From sequence record DRR723986_24382: a stretch of DNA of 34,033 bases; one strand, given 5' to 3'. Below, one piece after another: positions 26,929-34,033 of this stretch (position 1 is the first letter of the stretch; each line of letters begins with the position of its first letter). A program made the translations under genes and the position numbers. A model generated the notes under the pieces. The model saw nothing but the letters and a program-made list of their open reading frames with translations, made no database searches and had not been told where the DNA came from.

Positions 26929-27038
26929 ACAATCAAGTTTACTTTGGTTAAATTTAGTACGAATTTTATTAATCCAAAATTGAGCCAAATTGTAAGTTTC
27001 ATTCAATGAACACGACTTTCTATCAAATAGTTAGCATT

Positions 27039-27812
27039 ATGAAAAAACAGTTATCCATAATATTTCTCTTTTTAGGGCTGTCATTTACAGCGAGCGCTCA
27101 ATTACCCAATGGTTCAATTGCGCCAGACTTTACTTTAACCGATAGAGACGGAGTGACGCATCATTTATACAGCTATTTGGCTGAAGGCAAGGTGGTATTC
27201 ATTAAGTTTTTTGCTTGTCATTGTCCTGGATGCTGGTCTTATCATCAAACTGGAAAATTAGAATCGCTACATCAAACTTATGGACCTGACGGAACCGATC
27301 AAATAGTGGTAATCATGTTAGAGCATGATCAAAATAATCCGGAGGCATTTTCAGGAGGTGGAACCTATACTCAGGGCGACTGGGAGGCCGGAAATACGGT
27401 GCCAATGGTGGATGTTGAAGGAACGGATAGAACAGTATTTGATGATTATAATTTGAATTATTATCCCATGGTGATGAAAGTGTGTTCAGATAAAACCACA
27501 GAATTGATGTCGACCAATTATACGGTGCAAGAGTTGTTTGATGAAGCAGATGATTGTGCTGGAAATTTGAGCCTTAATCCAAATGAATTGAGCGGTGCAA
27601 TTTATTTTAATGCGTCACTTCAGCAAATTGTATTGGATGGGTTTGATCAAATTGAAAGTGTTAGTGTTTACAATTCAATTGGACAACGGGTAATGTATAA
27701 ACAGCTTCCAGAAAATCAAACTCTGAATACATCAGAATTGACTTCCGGACTGTTTATCGTAAAAGTTAATTCTCAGAATGGAACTTTGACTGAGAAAATC
27801 ATTATTAATTAA
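27039..27812 (+). CDS. Redoxin/thioredoxin-fold protein with T9SS type A CTD
   Basis: APDFTLTD, CHCPGC, YYP cis-Pro loop; YNSIGQRV...SGLFIVKV...EKIII CTD; signal peptide from ATG 27039. Confidence 0.82.
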   Translation: MKKQLSIIFLFLGLSFTASAQLPNGSIAPDFTLTDRDGVTHHLYSYLAEGKVVFIKFFACHCPGCWSYHQTGKLESLHQTYGPDGTDQIVVIMLEHDQNNPEAFSGGGTYTQGDWEAGNTVPMVDVEGTDRTVFDDYNLNYYPMVMKVCSDKTTELMSTNYTVQELFDEADDCAGNLSLNPNELSGAIYFNASLQQIVLDGFDQIESVSVYNSIGQRVMYKQLPENQTLNTSELTSGLFIVKVNSQNGTLTEKIIIN

Positions 27813-28756
27813 TCCAAAAAGAAAGGATTCCCATGGCGTTGATGTGGCTTAGGCGGAGGGAAAACACAAACGTTTAGCATCAATTCATGTGTTCCTTTAC
27901 CGTAAGTGCGCAAAGGGTTGGTCATGATGTCAAATGAGTAGCCGATCTTAATCATATTCACACGTGTACTTTCTGCTGGAGAAAAGGCGTATCCCATATT
28001 AAATGCAACCGCGTCAGACATTCTGTAGGATAATCCACCCCAGAGGTACGAGTAACTATTCAGCCAAATATCACCGGCAATATTAAAGTCAAATACCATG
28101 GAAGCGCCATCTGCTTTTAATAAGATGCTTGGTTTTAGATCTATTTTTCGTTGCGCTCTAATGCTGATGTTATAACCCGCTAATACATAGTAATGTCTAG
28201 CCACATTAAAATTGACAGCTTGAACCTCTTGCGGAACCAGGTGAGTGGTTGATATACCAACATAAAGTGGAATAGAAGAGCCGTGAAAATAGATACCCAT
28301 ATTGGCATCCATGATGGTGCCTGAAATTGGATCTGGCAAAATGGGATCGTCATCTGTTTGAGGTGGGATCCATACCGGAGAGAAGCCGACATTGACAATA
28401 CCAAGACCAATTCCTGCGCTAAAGTGCCCAATATTGGTTGGTAAATGATAAGCTCCGTTTAGTGTTAGGGTATTGTTCCGTTGAAAACCAATGGCATCAT
28501 TTGTAAATGATAAACCTACACCCAAATTTTGACGGGGAATATTGGCTTGTACGTTCAGTAAAGATGTGTTGGGAGCATCTTGTACGCGATCCCATTGATT
28601 TCGATAAATGAAAGTGCCACAAATTCCTTTGAACCCTGTTGTAGCCGGGTTGTATGACATGCGATCAAACATGTAATGAGTGAATTGTTTGTCTTGCTGT
28701 GCATGGATGCTGCTCAAAATTAAACAGCTGAATAAAAAAGTTAAGGTTGTTTTCAT
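27809..28756 (-). CDS. PorP/SprF family T9SS outer-membrane protein
   Basis: QQDKQFTHYMF...NPATTG...YRNQW...AP, IGYSFD, GTHELML. Confidence 0.9.
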   Translation of the reverse strand: MKTTLTFLFSCLILSSIHAQQDKQFTHYMFDRMSYNPATTGFKGICGTFIYRNQWDRVQDAPNTSLLNVQANIPRQNLGVGLSFTNDAIGFQRNNTLTLNGAYHLPTNIGHFSAGIGLGIVNVGFSPVWIPPQTDDDPILPDPISGTIMDANMGIYFHGSSIPLYVGISTTHLVPQEVQAVNFNVARHYYVLAGYNISIRAQRKIDLKPSILLKADGASMVFDFNIAGDIWLNSYSYLWGGLSYRMSDAVAFNMGYAFSPAESTRVNMIKIGYSFDIMTNPLRTYGKGTHELMLNVCVFPPPKPHQRHGNPFFLD

Positions 28757-28924
28757 AGTGCTAGATTTGTTTCTAACACTTTATGTTTTGAATTTTAAAA
28801 GGTAACCAGTTGTAATAGAAAAAAATGATTGTAAATGGATGAACTACTTGATAATGAATCCTAAAAAATCCTAATAATTTGAGTTGTTATAGGTGAATAG
28901 TAAAGCGATTATTAAATTAGAGAT

Positions 28925-29344
28925 ATGAAGTATCTAAGTTTTACTTTTTTAATCATGATGATGGTGTCTTGTGGTAACAGCAAAGACGTTAATTTGGATG
29001 ATGATACCGAGCGCAACCCTGAATGGACATTTGAAAATATTGCATTGATCATTCATGATGAATTCCCTGAGGCTTATGACAATTTCATCAATATTTCTTT
29101 CAGTAGAGTAGAGATGAGTATTACCCCAGAGAAAGCCAGTTTTTTAATTCCGACTAAGTATTTTGAAAAGAAACTGACACAAGAAGTGTGTAAAGAAAGA
29201 ACCGACAATGTGGTTGAAAAAATGACTGGATTTAGGGATGGTTGCCAAGAAGTTGAAATAGGGGAGTCGCAAAAATATGCTTGGCACAGTTGGGAAGATA
29301 AGGTAGTGACTAAGGTCACGATTTATTTTGCGATTGGTTGTTGA
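28925..29344 (+). CDS. Hypothetical lipoprotein
   Basis: Lipobox MVSC; converges on the distal end of the cassette array. Confidence 0.65.
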   Translation: MKYLSFTFLIMMMVSCGNSKDVNLDDDTERNPEWTFENIALIIHDEFPEAYDNFINISFSRVEMSITPEKASFLIPTKYFEKKLTQEVCKERTDNVVEKMTGFRDGCQEVEIGESQKYAWHSWEDKVVTKVTIYFAIGC

Positions 29345-29350
29345 GGTATT

Positions 29351-29449
29351 GAAGAAGTATTCGTGATAACCGTAGGGATTTTTTAGGGCTAAGGATAATT
29401 GGGTGAGAGTCTGGAGGCGTTTTAGAATGGTTTTTTGTTAGGTGCTGTT
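29351..29449. repeat. attC-like site 1 (truncated, left arm missing)
   Basis: Ungapped match to 32701-32794 (69/94 identical by hand count); ends GTTAGGTGCTGTT. Confidence 0.75.
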
Positions 29450-29451
29450 TT

Positions 29452-29955
29452 CTACTTTGAGTTGACTTTTGAGTCTACACCAAAATAATTCACTTCCTTA
29501 AATGATTCAGAGAGGGGTAGTTGAATTATGGATTGCATTTTCACATAAGCACCAAGACCGCAACCCTCACTAGTGTCTTGGGCGTATACATTTAGATCTC
29601 CGTTTTCAAAAGAGTAACTCGATTTAATTTCAAGACAAATTCCCCAAGCGAAGAAGTATTCATCAATTATAAGGCTGTCAGAATTCCTGAAGATTTGAAT
29701 TGAATCACGCTTTTTATTGTTTTTTCCGTAGGTAGAACTGAACTGTTTTGTAAACTTTGAGTCATTCCAAATGGAATCTTCTAAATAAATGCATTTAGTT
29801 GATATCCCGTCTGAATTCCTGATTTTCTGAACATCTAAATCCAATATTGATTCTAATGTATCTTGGTCTTGAATAGTTATAGATTTCTCATTATTATTCG
29901 GGCCGCAAGAACTTAAAATTAGAAGCGCATAAATAAAATTCAGAGTTCGATTCAT
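29452..29955 (-). CDS. Cassette E: hypothetical lipoprotein
   Basis: Lipobox LSSC. Confidence 0.7.
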   Translation of the reverse strand: MNRTLNFIYALLILSSCGPNNNEKSITIQDQDTLESILDLDVQKIRNSDGISTKCIYLEDSIWNDSKFTKQFSSTYGKNNKKRDSIQIFRNSDSLIIDEYFFAWGICLEIKSSYSFENGDLNVYAQDTSEGCGLGAYVKMQSIIQLPLSESFKEVNYFGVDSKVNSK

Positions 29956-29967
29956 TTGTCAAATTGT

Positions 29968-30137
29968 AATAGCACTCAACGTTTGAGTAAATATAATGCT
30001 TTCGAATAAGTTCCAGCATAGACGTTATGCAATTTTTAGATGCCGCCCTCGCTTTTGCATAGCTTCAGCGAAGCAAGGCGTTAGTGCGTTGACCATGCCG
30101 TATTGCCTTTTAGCATAGTTCTATGTAAGGTGTTGTT
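29968..30137. repeat. attC-like site 2
   Basis: AACGTTTGAGTAAATATAATGCTTTCG...AATTTTTAGATG...TTTTAGCATAGTTCTATGT, shared with 33439-33580. Confidence 0.8.
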
Positions 30138-30161
30138 TTAAGCTTATGTAGAACTGTTCTT

Positions 30162-30902
30162 CTATTGAAAAGTCAGATAATTCTTTTTCCAATAGTTTTC
30201 AATGAATTCCCACTTATCACCATAAAAACCGGGTGCTCTCGGTTCAGAGTAAACTTCTATTTCCTTTGTGCCAATATTATTAAATACAAATATACCGTTG
30301 CGTTCTTCATCTTCACAGCCAATTCCTTCGATAAAGCCTAATTGAACGACTTCGAAATTTTCAATAATGAATAATTCACTGCCCCAGTTGAAATCGGAAC
30401 ATCCACTTCTATGATATGAATAATAGAAATTGGTATTCCCTATTTTATTTGGTTCGGGATAGTTGTCGAAGGCTTTTATGTTATTGAAAGCATTGTTTTT
30501 TTGATCAAATACTATCAATTGACTTATACCACCAATATTTGTCATTTGATGAACTCGAATATCTAATATTCCATTTCCAGTGAAGTCTTCGAATTGAAAA
30601 CCAGCAGTGGCATAATCGAAATGTGAATAAAGAGTGTCGAGCAAATGATTAAGGATGGTCAGTTTCATATCACATTCATTGTCTTCCATGTTTTGAAAAA
30701 CGTAAAAGTTTTCTACTCCGATTTTCAGGGTGTCAGAATCATAAATACAGTCGTATGTGGAAACAGTCGGAGATTGAGAAGTAATTGTGTCCGAAATGGT
30801 TAATGGTTGGTCAATTTCATTGTTAATTTCATTGCTGATTTCAGACTTTGATGAACATTGGACGAACAATACTAAAATGATAATATACTTTATGGACTTC
30901 AT
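30162..30902 (-). CDS. Cassette D: hypothetical lipoprotein with a DxxGxGxxD (FG-GAP/XAC2610-like) motif
   Basis: Lipobox-like FVQC; EDFTGNGILD. Confidence 0.68.
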   Translation of the reverse strand: MKSIKYIIILVLFVQCSSKSEISNEINNEIDQPLTISDTITSQSPTVSTYDCIYDSDTLKIGVENFYVFQNMEDNECDMKLTILNHLLDTLYSHFDYATAGFQFEDFTGNGILDIRVHQMTNIGGISQLIVFDQKNNAFNNIKAFDNYPEPNKIGNTNFYYSYHRSGCSDFNWGSELFIIENFEVVQLGFIEGIGCEDEERNGIFVFNNIGTKEIEVYSEPRAPGFYGDKWEFIENYWKKNYLTFQ

Positions 30903-31005
30903 TTTGTCAATCTACAGATTGTTAGATTCGAAAGCACATTAAAAGAGTGAAATAAGATATTCCAATTATTATTTGTTGGTCAAGAGTGATTATGAGATTT
31001 CAGGT

Positions 31006-31173
31006 AATAACGCCTAATGTTTGAGCAAAGCTAGCAATTTATTGTGGTGTCAAGTAGGAGGGAAACCCTAATTCTCGGCGCACGTGTCGGCCATCCGGAT
31101 TTGGACACGTCATAAGAGGTCTATGTGTGGATCCGGGTGGCGATTAACTGTAGATACTGTGTTGTGTTTAGTT
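31006..31173. repeat. attC-like site 3 (divergent interior)
   Basis: Same end geometry as the other sites (AATAACGCCTAAT-GTTTGAG ... GTTGTGTTTAGTT) but an unrelated GC-rich interior. Confidence 0.6.
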
Positions 31174-31194
31174 TTTCACCACTCCCTTAAGTTC

Positions 31195-32601
31195 CTACAG
31201 ATTGTTTAGTTCTTCTTTCAATTCCGAGAGTGTAATTTCTTCAAAAGCAATGTCTTGAACTTCCTTTTCCGAAATAAGTTTCTTTTTAAAGAATGTTTCA
31301 ATTTTACCATCAGTATTTTTCATTCCAAAAATGGTTACCCATTCACCGTTTGGCACGTTCGGGAAATAATACTTTCCATCTTCATTCCTTGCTTGAATAA
31401 CTGAGTTAATTTCTGAGAAGATCATTTTGAATTCGATTTGATCACTCACTTTATAATCTACAAAAAGGTCTGTTTTATCTTCTTCTTCTAAATAAAGGAA
31501 TCGATCACAGTTGATCCAGCCAAGTTGGGCAACATTGAAGATGTAATATTCTGCTTCAGCTTTGTCCATACTCGTAATCGGCACATCTTCAAATTCGGCA
31601 TATTTTTCATCAAAAGATTTCATATAATTTTCTCGTTTTTCAAATTTCTGCACCGCTCTACCTTCAGTAATTAGCATGTATCCTTCTCTCTCAATTATTT
31701 CTCCGTGCATGTTTTTACCTGGTTCAAGTTGTGGAATGTTGTATAAAAAGCGTTTGACTTCTGCTTTAGTAGAATCAGAAATTGGGGTATGAATTCTTAC
31801 ATTCTTTATGTAGCCTTCTTTCGTTATTTTCATGGCACATTCAATTCCAAAAGTATTCCAGTCATCAAATACATTAGGATTAAGATTAGATAGTTTGGTT
31901 TTGTTCTCAGTTGTTGTTATCTCTGAAATTGCTTTTTCCGACCAATCAAATGATTTTACATAGAAATCAATAGGATTCCAGTAGTAAACATCTTTATCTC
32001 CAAAATCTTTTGGTTGGAAGTCGTATTCGGTTGAGTCGTCATGTTCAGGATATAGCCATCCATAATTACCTAATGTAAGTGTCTTTTGCATTACATTTCC
32101 TGATTTATCAAGATTCCAGTCCATAACGGCATCATCAGATGATTGCTCTCCTGCGTAGAATAGCTGCATATCATCTTTTTTGTAAGATTTTGTAGGAAAA
32201 TGAACTACCAAATCATTGCCATTAACAATTTCAACTTCGTTTCCGTTTGATTCTGCAGCGATATAGAGCATACCTCCAGATTCGAGTAGTTCATCACTTG
32301 AAGATGTTGAGAGATCTGCAAGGGCAATTTCTGTTTTAGTGTAATATTCCTCAAGTTGAATAGTTACAGTTTCTGTAACTGGGGTACCATCATGAAATTG
32401 AAAAGAGTTTGATTCGATAAATATTCGAGTTCCTGATTCTCCAAAAATTGTGGTATCCCTAGTTGGGTCAATATTAAACTCAGAAGACATAACATTTTCT
32501 TCCAGCTCTTCAGAAGATAAAGAGGTGTCTGAAATTGATGAGTTACCTGCACAGGCCGAAAGGAAGATTATTAAGGGTAAAATAAAATGATACTTAGTCA
32601 T
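31195..32601 (-). CDS. Cassette C: Bacteroidota lipoprotein (LESGGM / LGWINCDRF family) with a possible TonB-C-like central insert
   Basis: Lipobox LSAC; motifs LLESGGMLYI and YIFNVAQLGWINCDRF. Confidence 0.72.
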   Translation of the reverse strand: MTKYHFILPLIIFLSACAGNSSISDTSLSSEELEENVMSSEFNIDPTRDTTIFGESGTRIFIESNSFQFHDGTPVTETVTIQLEEYYTKTEIALADLSTSSSDELLESGGMLYIAAESNGNEVEIVNGNDLVVHFPTKSYKKDDMQLFYAGEQSSDDAVMDWNLDKSGNVMQKTLTLGNYGWLYPEHDDSTEYDFQPKDFGDKDVYYWNPIDFYVKSFDWSEKAISEITTTENKTKLSNLNPNVFDDWNTFGIECAMKITKEGYIKNVRIHTPISDSTKAEVKRFLYNIPQLEPGKNMHGEIIEREGYMLITEGRAVQKFEKRENYMKSFDEKYAEFEDVPITSMDKAEAEYYIFNVAQLGWINCDRFLYLEEEDKTDLFVDYKVSDQIEFKMIFSEINSVIQARNEDGKYYFPNVPNGEWVTIFGMKNTDGKIETFFKKKLISEKEVQDIAFEEITLSELKEELNNL

Positions 32602-32664
32602 AAGCTTTTGGGTTAATAACGTGGCGTTTATTTGAAGATGAAAGACCTGTTAAAAGGTAATCTC

Positions 32665-32799
32665 AATTAAATACAAGGTTTGGTTAAATATAATGCTTTC
32701 GCTGAAGTATTAATTTTGATGGTGAGAAATTTTTGGGACTAAGGATAATCGGTGGAGAGCTTGGAGGCCTTCTTGCATGGTTTTATGTTAGGTGGCGTT
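32665..32799. repeat. attC-like site 4
   Basis: GTTTGGTTAAATATAATGCTTTCG left arm; right arm GCATGGTTTTATGTTAGGTGGCGTT overlaps the TAA stop of 32788-33438. Confidence 0.8.
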
Positions 32800-33438
32800 T
32801 TCATTCAAGTACTGATCAACTGCCATAGGCTCTGATAGGTACACAAGTTCAAGTGAATTCCAGTCCATCAGAACGAGATTCCAGTTCTTTCCTACTTGAT
32901 TTAAAACCTTTGAAATTCCTGCGTCCTTGAGATTACTAATGTTAGTTAACCAAATTTGGTCAATGATCTGTTCAGAAGTGAACCCATAATAGATTGCAGA
33001 ATAATCTTTTCCATAGGCACTCGTGTTTTCACTTAAAACCCGATAACTTTCGCCATAACCAGTTGATACTATATCGTGCCTTGTGGTGTTCAGTTGACCA
33101 ATCACAAATTCCAATTCAGATTTAGTTATTTGCAACTTATTTAAAGGGTATTTTTCTTCATCCCGGACAGTAATCTTTTTATAACCGGGTTCATCTGGAG
33201 TTGAATCTTTCTGACCAAGTATAACTTCTGCTTGTCCTTTTAAGAATTGTAGATTTTCATGAGGTAAAATTTGAATTTGACAGTAATCGTCTTCATGGTA
33301 AAATATAGTTGCCGAAGAAACATTGAAATTTGGTTTAGGTGGGCCATCACCGGGATTCTTCTGCGGTTTACCAAACATTTTGTGCAGAAGTATTGCTAAG
33401 AGCAAGAGTCCAGTAAGAGCTGCATAAGTTAATCCCAT
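32788..33438 (-). CDS. Cassette B: hypothetical protein with an N-terminal membrane anchor
   Basis: Hydrophobic N-terminus; ATG directly follows the 13-bp cassette end and TAA lies inside the other end. Confidence 0.7.
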   Translation of the reverse strand: MGLTYAALTGLLLLAILLHKMFGKPQKNPGDGPPKPNFNVSSATIFYHEDDYCQIQILPHENLQFLKGQAEVILGQKDSTPDEPGYKKITVRDEEKYPLNKLQITKSELEFVIGQLNTTRHDIVSTGYGESYRVLSENTSAYGKDYSAIYYGFTSEQIIDQIWLTNISNLKDAGISKVLNQVGKNWNLVLMDWNSLELVYLSEPMAVDQYLNENAT

Positions 33439-33580
33439 AATGACACCTAACGTTTAAGTAAATATAATGCTTTCGCAGCAGCTTCAATATGGGCGCTAGG
33501 AATTTTTAGATGATGCTCAGTAAGCGCACGAGATGGTTGAGCCTCCAGCATTTTAGCATAGTTCTATGTTATGAATAGTC
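33439..33580. repeat. attC-like site 5 (best preserved)
   Basis: ACCTAAC ... GTTATGA ends; imperfect long palindrome (TATAATGCT/AGCATTTTA, GCTTCAA/TTGAGC, GCGCT/AGCGC). Confidence 0.82.
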
Positions 33581-33588
33581 TTTTACTC

Positions 33589-33999
33589 CTATAAACTGCG
33601 TGATATTCTTGCATTTCTTATTAAATAGTACTGTGGAATATATTGAGGAATAACTGAAGAATCCTTTAGAGTTGTGGTGCGTTCAAACAATTGACCTTTT
33701 ACTCTTACTTTTTTGTGTTCCATCTTATCAGGAAAATCATAAAGTCCTTCTATATAATAAGAACCTTTTTTTGCAATTATCAGTACACCTCCCTTTGCTG
33801 ATTCTGCTATACCTACAACATTTATTTTTCCTTGATAAATTATACTTGTCGACCAAGCTGGATAATCATAAAGTGTATCAGAGTATGAAATATTTTCATT
33901 TTCAACTAGTATTGTTTTACAACTACTTATAGATGAGGCTAACCACAGAAATAGAATAAATGTAGATAATTTAATGCTAGCTCTAAGTGAATTATTCAT
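33589..33999 (-). CDS. Cassette A: hypothetical lipoprotein
   Basis: Lipobox ISSC; the ATG lies inside the cassette end GTT-ATG-AATAATT. Confidence 0.68.
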   Translation of the reverse strand: MNNSLRASIKLSTFILFLWLASSISSCKTILVENENISYSDTLYDYPAWSTSIIYQGKINVVGIAESAKGGVLIIAKKGSYYIEGLYDFPDKMEHKKVRVKGQLFERTTTLKDSSVIPQYIPQYYLIRNARISRSL

Positions 34000-34033
34000 A
34001 ACTTTCGTGTAAAATTAGGCAATTTTTAGATTG
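33990..34033. repeat. attC/attI-like site 6, cut by window edge
   Basis: AATTATTCATAAC-N7-TAAAATTA then GCAATTTTTAGA, a motif also at 30029; its AATTTTTAGA core is also at 33501. Confidence 0.55.

Follow-up and report, generated by a model that had tools for sequence, protein, structure and literature searches.

The window analysed here is the whole stretch of 34,033 nucleotides (nt) from sequence record DRR723986_24382. The piece from 29,351 to 34,033 was examined together with its flanks, and all coordinates refer to the + strand. Five units lie in this piece, each with one open reading frame (ORF) between two 13-base ends (13-mers). All five ORFs are on the minus strand in one orientation, and the units are separated by conserved spacers of 109-144 nt. 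On the sense strand, the plan of a unit is GTT-N7-ATT, a short leader, the ORF and (A/G/T)AAAC-N7′-AAC, followed by a spacer that resembles the attC recombination site of integrons. The stretch 29345-34033 is very probably the far end of a chromosomal gene-cassette array of the integron type, read on the minus strand, in the genome of a member of the Bacteroidota (Flavobacteriales-like).

In the direction of reading, the first feature is the 3′ part of an attC-like spacer (S5, 34003-34033), which is cut by the window end. S5 has a 17-nt block in common with spacer S1 and resembles the 3′ modules of contig C99 of the nearest genome, G001. The array, and any recombinase gene, would continue rightwards past the window end. 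Unit A (33568-34002) has its 13-mers at 33568-33580, with GTC at positions 11-13, and at 33990-34002. The latter overlaps the start codon of the ORF (33589-33999, 136 amino acids (aa)). The downstream site of cassette A is the attC-like spacer S4 (33452-33567, 116 nt). Unit B (32787-33451) possesses 13-mers at 32787-32799 and 33439-33451 and an ORF at 32788-33438 (216 aa), whose stop codon lies inside its own 13-mer at 32787-32799; its downstream site is S3 (32678-32786, 109 nt, attC-like). In unit C (31161-32677), the 13-mers are at 31161-31173 and 32665-32677 (AAG variant, + strand) and the ORF at 31195-32601 encodes 468 aa. The attC-like downstream site of cassette C, S2 (31019-31160, 142 nt), has a 3′ module of the type of G005, a complete genome of the same genus, in an alignment with the G005 attC sites. 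Unit D (30125-31018) has 13-mers at 30125-30137 (GTA variant) and 31006-31018 (AAT variant, + strand), an ORF at 30162-30902 (246 aa), and the attC-like site S1 (29981-30124, 144 nt) downstream. S1 has conserved modules in common with S3, S4 and the spacers of G001. The last cassette, unit E (29437-29980), has 13-mers at 29437-29449 and 29968-29980 and an ORF at 29452-29955 (167 aa) with a lipoprotein-like N-terminus. Its downstream site, the last attC-like spacer (S0, 29345-29436), is truncated and marks the array end: the middle of S0 aligns with S3, and its L′-CAAAC-GTT end (3′ end) is missing.

The left flank contains a lipoprotein-like ORF (28925-29344, + strand), a PorP/SprF gene, and a redoxin gene with a type IX secretion sorting domain. 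The PorP/SprF gene and the sorting domain show that the host belongs to the Bacteroidota. Searches of Pfam and PHROGs with the five cassette ORFs and the flank ORF gave no usable family; the sole PHROG match had an E-value of 0.005, with no stretch passing alone. No Rfam family was found in 28700-34033 at E-values up to 1. By eye, the translations of cassettes A, C, D and E and of the flank ORF begin like lipoproteins (a hydrophobic stretch, then Cys), and that of cassette B begins with a hydrophobic stretch like a membrane helix.

Matching of the two ends of each unit

In the original prediction, complementarity between ends was said to follow the gene and not the spacer. All ten 13-mers were found at the positions given above and every count was reproduced. 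When the left end on the + strand was compared with the reverse complement of the right end of the same unit, the N7 matched at 7/7 positions in A, 6/7 in B, C and D, and 5/7 in E. For the whole 13-mer, the matches were 11/13 in A and B, 10/13 in C, 9/13 in D and 10/13 in E. Across the spacers, the N7 matches were 4/7 (E/D), 2/7 (D/C), 1/7 (C/B) and 3/7 (B/A). Furthermore, all five units had G at position 11 of the left end (+ strand) and A at this position of the right end once reverse-complemented, as had been reported.

The true pairing gives 30 of 35 N7 matches and is the best of the 120 possible left/right pairings (mean 18.0, next best 28). The p value of 1/120 is the smallest that can be reached with five units. 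Units B, D and E share an N7 of the AGGTG type and cross-match at 4-6 of 7 positions, which weakens the evidence from the window. As a control, 24 left-type and 20 right-type sites in 1-29300 of the window gave only one pair with at most two N7 mismatches. The cassette ends of the window carry the strict signature GTT-N7-ATT / AAC-N7′-AAC, from which A, C and D deviate by variants. Taken from the window alone, the own-end matching is suggestive rather than compelling, and the decisive support for it comes from related genomes.

Covariation and folding in the G005 array

In G005, a gene for a tyrosine recombinase of 380 aa is followed by 29 highly similar sites on the same strand (~160-185 nt), which separate small ORFs. 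With the 28 cassettes, the two ends of the same cassette matched at 181 of 196 N7 positions, versus 97 of 203 for ends facing each other across an attC. In 100,000 shuffles, the number of own-end matches never exceeded 126. The excess of matching within cassettes over matching across spacers is thus borne out by a permutation test in G005.

Identity at positions 4-10 was 0.79-1.00 within a cassette and 0.28-0.86 across an attC. At positions 8, 9 and 10, it was 0.89, 0.79 and 0.96 within cassettes versus 0.38, 0.28 and 0.45 across attCs. At position 11, identity was 0.00 both within and across, with A at the 5′ end of the cassette and G at the other end in 28/28. At positions 12 and 13, it was 0.93 and 1.00 in both comparisons, and beyond position 13 it was at background level in both. 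In these results, covariation demonstrates pairing at positions 4-10 only, as positions 1-3 and 11-13 do not vary. The "13 bp" core is 10 paired bases with conserved flanks, which may add two A-T pairs beyond the wobble. The N7 is not conserved, yet it co-varies with its partner; therefore, selection acts on the pairing. This covariation suggests that the site acts as a folded single strand or a cruciform rather than as a duplex sequence that a protein reads.

Three G005 cassettes of unrelated content share one 13-mer (L028:2322, L028:16680 and L030:1727; 22322, 36680 and 41727 in concatenated coordinates). Among the first 401 positions compared, 114-119 are identical between them. Only 20 distinct N7 occur in the 29 sites; thus, within a genome the N7 is drawn from a limited pool. 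In all 29 sites, stop codons abut or overlap AAAAC-N7′-AAC and start codons lie 3-15 nt after ATT. The window cassettes are similarly compact at 29449-29454 and 32787-32799, where stop codons abut or overlap the AAAAC-N7′-AAC end.

The fixed asymmetry at position 11 bears on a different explanation, in which each gene is an inverton whose orientation to promoters in the spacers is switched, gene by gene, by a DNA invertase. Many invertases occur in the Bacteroidota, inverted repeats do flank whole genes here, and the 3′ module of the spacer resembles the −7 promoter box of Bacteroidetes. However, the asymmetry (A array-proximal, G distal) follows the array and not the gene, and it is kept by the G005 cassettes with a reversed ORF (28282-28878 and 36698-37252). 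Moreover, 5/5 genes of the window and nearly all genes of G005 have one orientation. An inversion joint was not seen in contigs of low coverage, which is weak evidence. We therefore consider single-gene inversion very improbable.

The fold of the 29 G005 sites was predicted with RNAalifold. The AAC/GTT R pairs were obtained, with an unpaired spacer of 6 and 5 nt and an L box of 8 bp, five pairs of which had compensatory changes. An R box, an unpaired central spacer and an L box make up the attC architecture described in the available parts of PMC2727003 and PMC7439510. L-box complementarity at G005 offsets was at least 7/8 in 25/29 sites; 19/29 sites pair 8/8 at fixed offsets with no unpaired base inside.

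The sites were also folded with DNA parameters, either with the own ends of the cassette rejoined in silico or in the array context. With own ends, the bottom strand of the G005 sites had a mean energy of −34.0 kcal/mol and an R stem of at least 10 pairs in 27/28, and the top strand had −28.7 kcal/mol and such a stem in 22/28. In the array context, the values were −28.7 kcal/mol and 3/28 for the bottom strand, and −24.3 kcal/mol and 2/28 for the top strand. The bottom strand was more stable than the top strand in 28/28. The third position from the outer end is a G-T pair on the bottom strand in 27/28, and an A-C mismatch on the top strand. Given this difference between a G-T wobble and an A-C mismatch at the fixed mispair, the bottom strand folds into the better hairpin.

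In the window, S4 with the own ends of A gave 10 stem pairs on the bottom strand and −14.8 kcal/mol, versus −8.9 kcal/mol in the array context. S3 with the own ends of B gave a 12-pair R stem on the bottom strand and −8.8 versus −5.8 kcal/mol. The longer stem that circularisation at the GTT was expected to give was thus obtained in G005 and with cassettes A and B of the window, but not with C and D.

Crossover point, recombinase and occurrence of the signature

Two cassettes of G005 are each present twice, behind different attCs. With the first pair, the identity of the copies starts after −12 (counted from the G of GTT), covers the gene and all of the attC downstream of it, and ends at +6, where the following cassettes are different. 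With the second pair, the identity starts after −6 and runs through the gene. The boundaries of these duplicates show that the mobile unit is a gene with its downstream site, and they place the junction within −5 to +5 of the G of GTT. Such a position fits the G^TT crossover of integrons, and a crossover in the middle of the spacer is ruled out by the sequences of the copies. The claim that cassettes of the integron type are split at a conserved GTT is thereby supported.

In the second pair, the first ~110 nt of the attC are common to both copies, and the last ~50 nt, including L′, differ, so that L″ and L′ are mismatched (L028:10886-11045 and L030:1020-1177; 30886-31045 and 41020-41177 in concatenated coordinates). 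Because of these different tails, the attCs are mosaics that have been reshuffled among themselves, presumably through exchange between similar sites.

The 380-aa recombinase of G005 scored 232 bits against NF040815 (XerA type; cut-off 220), the only model over its cut-off. Against TIGR02249 (IntI), it scored 189 bits, below the cut-off of 265. Its best solved relatives are of the XerA type (4A8E and 5HXY), to which it was aligned without a break. In the alignment with IntI4 (2A3V), residues 272-305 of the query face residues 171-246 of the chain, so that ~42 residues fewer are present at the site of the insertion that is IntI's own. For the N-terminal ~108-110 residues (L027:18888-19217), no credible Pfam match was found; the sole match listed had an E-value of 0.031 and was below the cut-off.

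IntI over the cut-off was found in none of the 151 genomes of the family. In contrast, the N-terminal half of the recombinase had a match at E ≤ 1e-30 in 75/151 of these genomes versus 0/14 control genomes. Four of five further members of the genus have the recombinase at 57-76% identity. The recombinase gene and the cassettes share one strand in G005 and 8 further loci, and the distance from the gene to the first cassette end downstream is 82-183 nt. In many draft genomes (loci L033-L036, L038, L039 and others), ~0.1-1.8 kb of sequence follow the recombinase gene before the contig ends; such a break in the assembly would be expected of a repeat-rich array.

The occurrence of the cassette-end signature was analysed around the recombinase genes. 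A strict pair was defined as GTT-N7-ATT followed by AAC-N7′-AAC, with at most one mismatch and 150-3500 nt apart. The 80 loci found with the recombinase protein include Flavobacteriales, Pontibacter, Marinifilum, Saccharicrinis and a metagenome-assembled genome (MAG) of Melioribacteraceae. Among them, 43 strict pairs were downstream of the recombinase gene versus 2 upstream; among 96 loci, 48 were on the recombinase strand versus 4 on the other. Of the 42 loci in which 3 kb or more follow the gene, 15 had one or more strict pairs.

When position 11 was left free, the combination (A,G) was found in 45 of 96 qualifying pairs, versus 4 for (G,A), 2 for (G,G) and 5 for (A,A). The 45 (A,G) pairs contain 44 distinct N7, with a purine at position 4 in 43/45 and G or T at position 5 in 39/45. 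The core thus deviates from the canonical GTTRRRY, as had been suggested, in that RRRY is relaxed. In a strand-symmetric scan, which separates the strands only from position 11 onward, (A,G) was found in 65 and (G,A) in 14 of 265 pairs. The sequence motifs of the genus attCs (CAAAC-GTT and others) were not enriched in other genera; therefore, the structural signature was used across genera. Direct inspection showed arrays with attC types of their own in a Vicingaceae genome and in Winogradskyella eckloniae and Saonia flava. The longer core had tentatively been tied to a distinct recombinase specificity, and the association supports this: in many genera of Bacteroidota, the signature lies downstream of an XerA-like recombinase without the IntI insertion.

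Relatives of the recombinase were also seen outside the Bacteroidota, in a Clostridia MAG (L070), a Hyphomicrobiales MAG (L102) and the Melioribacteraceae MAG (L065). The strict signature begins 139 nt after the gene in L065 and 113 nt after it in L070. In L102, no strict pair was found on the recombinase strand and one was found on the opposite strand.

The diversity of the N7 and the layout of the arrays bear on whether the matched ends are terminal inverted repeats of separate transposable units, resembling miniature inverted-repeat transposable elements or insertion sequences, each inserted into a repeated spacer. Each unit of the window is indeed bounded by an inverted repeat of 9-11/13. 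However, 44 distinct N7 in 45 pairs would be unrecognisable to one transposase, and neither a transposase nor a target-site duplication was found. In G005, the unit that moved is a gene with the whole downstream spacer and not the stretch between the inverted repeats. Moreover, the arrays have a polarity, and in 8 loci the array begins 82-183 nt behind a gene for a tyrosine recombinase. Separate transposable units can therefore be given almost no credence.

A further reading is that the window is an ordinary integron remnant, that is, a cluster of attC sites lacking an integron integrase (CALIN). The 13-mer would then be a canonical R box of 7 bp with shared ancestry, and positions 8-13 would match by descent or preference. 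The invariance of positions 11-13, which carry no pairing information, is in line with this reading, as are the similar N7 of window units B, D and E and the 13-mer common to three unrelated G005 cassettes. On the other hand, positions 8, 9 and 10 co-vary within cassettes and not across attCs, the N7 is highly diverse in many genera, and no canonical IntI was found in the 151 genomes of the family. In addition, canonical R boxes are heptanucleotides in the available parts of PMC2727003 and PMC7439510. We regard an ordinary remnant as unlikely.

Proposed mechanism and comparison with known systems

The sequence comparisons support ordinary integron logic with a longer, cassette-specific R stem, which would be longer in comparison with the published descriptions of R boxes. 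In the proposed mechanism, a cassette is a small gene with an attC-like site, with the 5′ end GTT-N7-ATT and the 3′ end AAC-N7′-AAC followed by the rest of the attC. In the free circle, the two ends would adjoin the attC and pair as an extended R box of 10 bases, with two possible A-T pairs past the fixed mispair. Insertion by crossover in CAAAC-GTT would split the R stem, and the partners would then flank the gene and not the spacer. The recombination is probably performed by the co-oriented XerA-like tyrosine recombinase that heads the arrays in the relatives. This enzyme may need a double-stranded arm of ~12 bp, and the wobble may help to select the strand.

We further consider, as a possible but doubtful extension, that the stem of 10-13 bp and the invariant G-T wobble of the bottom strand select the substrate and the strand. 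They would thereby replace the mechanism of extrahelical bases and I2 in a class of integrons that never gained the IntI insertion in its recombinase. If this is true, only the excised circle with its own ends would form the full stem (27/28 in G005 versus 3/28 in the array), which would favour insertion and keep cassettes locked in once they are integrated.

Several results weigh against the proposed array and mechanism. No recombinase is present in the window; no recombinase ORF was found in 27000-34033, where the array runs past the window end. In G001 (93% complete, 400 contigs), this recombinase type was not found, and the best match was a 308-aa Xer-type gene at 37% identity. Among the 42 loci with at least 3 kb downstream of the gene, 27 show no strict pair. 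Positions 11-13 never vary, so that pairing there is inseparable from plain sequence conservation. Furthermore, the 3′ end in G005 conserves AAAAC, and the 5′ end conserves only ATT and no complementary GTTTT.

The folds of the window spacers are weak (−2.8 to −18.4 kcal/mol), with no long-range R stem in the array context. No R stem appeared in the minimum-energy fold for C (S2) and D (S1), even with own ends. C and D are the cassettes whose GTT or AAC carry variants, and S2 forms a strong internal hairpin without an R stem. No L box was detected in the four complete window spacers: at the G005 offsets, the complementarity was 1-3/8 (S1 2/8, S2 3/8, S3 1/8 and S4 2/8), and at the best offset it was 4-5, with a shuffled mean of 4.5.

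The breakpoints between strains belong here as well. The original prediction held that breakpoints away from the GTT would refute insertion there, and those that were seen do fall away from it, which counts in part against the prediction. The window and G001 are 97% identical over 27000-29440, after which a different cassette follows. Within this comparison, the sequences are near-identical to 29367, where the identity drops, and the match is lost from ~29401, 36 nt before the GTT. A contig of run X2 has cassette E (29420-29716) next to unlike sequence. In a second X2 contig, the flank is shared as far as 29350, after which 708 other bases precede spacer-like matches; both are low-depth contigs of 85% likeness. 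The breakpoints at ~29400, 29420 and 29350 are thus within the attC-like spacer or at its edge. Recombination between repeated spacers would explain the breakpoints off the GTT. In three related genomes, different cassettes are present at one locus, and the visible breakpoints are in repeated spacers. Short contigs of run X1 cover 32141-32699 (unit C) at 99-100% identity. Only two public runs contain 6-7% of the sampled words; in their covered parts (low-depth contigs), no excision or inversion joint was detected at the GTT.

We take the window array to be either an orphan array or the far end, apparently in decay, of an array of this kind. It looks decayed because no L box was detected, the last site is truncated and breakpoints lie inside the attC. 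The R-stem partners persist while the L boxes are gone. Longer terminal repeats were not found: by eye, no pairing is seen between the 3′ module of a spacer and the 5′ module of the spacer that follows. Even within the genus, the window-type 3′ module is rare; when up to 3 mismatches were allowed, each of 8 genomes gave 0-4 matches.

Sedentary chromosomal integrons: The arrays are alike in that co-oriented small ORFs each have a repeated recombination site with AAC/GTT at its boundaries, the junction lies in the GTT stretch, and the gene is flanked by its own R″ and R′. The G005 sites have an R box, an unpaired spacer and an L box with covariation; they are long (~160-185 nt) and similar within the genome, as are the species-specific attC families of chromosomal integrons. 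In contrast, the G005 recombinase is XerA-like, lacks the IntI insertion (I2 region), and carries ~108 extra N-terminal residues. Unlike in canonical integrons, where intI diverges from the cassettes with attI and Pc in between, the recombinase is co-oriented with the cassettes (G005 and 8 loci), and no unpaired L″ G is present inside 19/29 G005 L boxes. Furthermore, the R stem co-varies over 10 bp with ATT/AAC flanks and a mispair at position 11, whereas the canonical R box is a heptanucleotide in the available part of PMC2727003.

CALIN: The window is alike in that it has at least five attC-like sites and no recombinase gene, and G001 is also without an array recombinase. It differs in that the window ends inside the array, so that the absence of a recombinase applies only within the window, and in that its sites have no detectable L box.

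Xer/dif and Cre/loxP: The recombinase is closest to XerA, and a double-stranded arm of 12-13 bp beside the cleavage point would match the arms of Xer and Cre, which are 11-13 bp. The arm here differs in that its sequence is not conserved but changes together with that of a partner, from which more than 100 nt separate it in the circle. Such a covarying arm points to recognition of a folded strand rather than of a duplex sequence.

That the own ends flank the gene is a known, textbook consequence of the G^TT crossover and no new principle. The arrays differ from the published descriptions in the longer R stem, the fixed mispair, the recombinase without I2, and the occurrence in many genera of Bacteroidota. 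In the available parts of PMC4792948 and PMC7790495, the I2 insertion of IntI is presented as an adaptation to the folded single-stranded attC. With IntegronFinder 2.0, one complete integron was reported in Bacteroidetes, in Salinibacter ruber, and integrons are described as nearly absent there in the available part of PMC9024848. Our literature search, with supplementary files outside its scope, yielded no published account of these arrays or of the long stem.

The sequence rule (own-end pairing of 10 bases, the mispair at position 11, and the ATT and AAC flanks) provides a testable handle on the recognition of structure by such an enzyme. It also raises a possible explanation for the stability of integrated cassettes. 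In addition, the rule is a search pattern for arrays that are possibly missed by tools requiring an IntI-specific integrase domain, which is the criterion of IntegronFinder. Alone, the window is of modest significance, as a decaying array end that carries small lipoprotein-like genes without a known family.

A motif TA-nn-TTT(A/G) was observed at the L′ arm, a few bases before the cassette start, in G005 (L028 and L030) and in the window (29981-30010, 32678-32705 and 33452-33480). It was not obvious in the Winogradskyella sites. The motif resembles TAnnTTTG, the −7 promoter box of Bacteroidetes, and on this resemblance each site might drive the next cassette.

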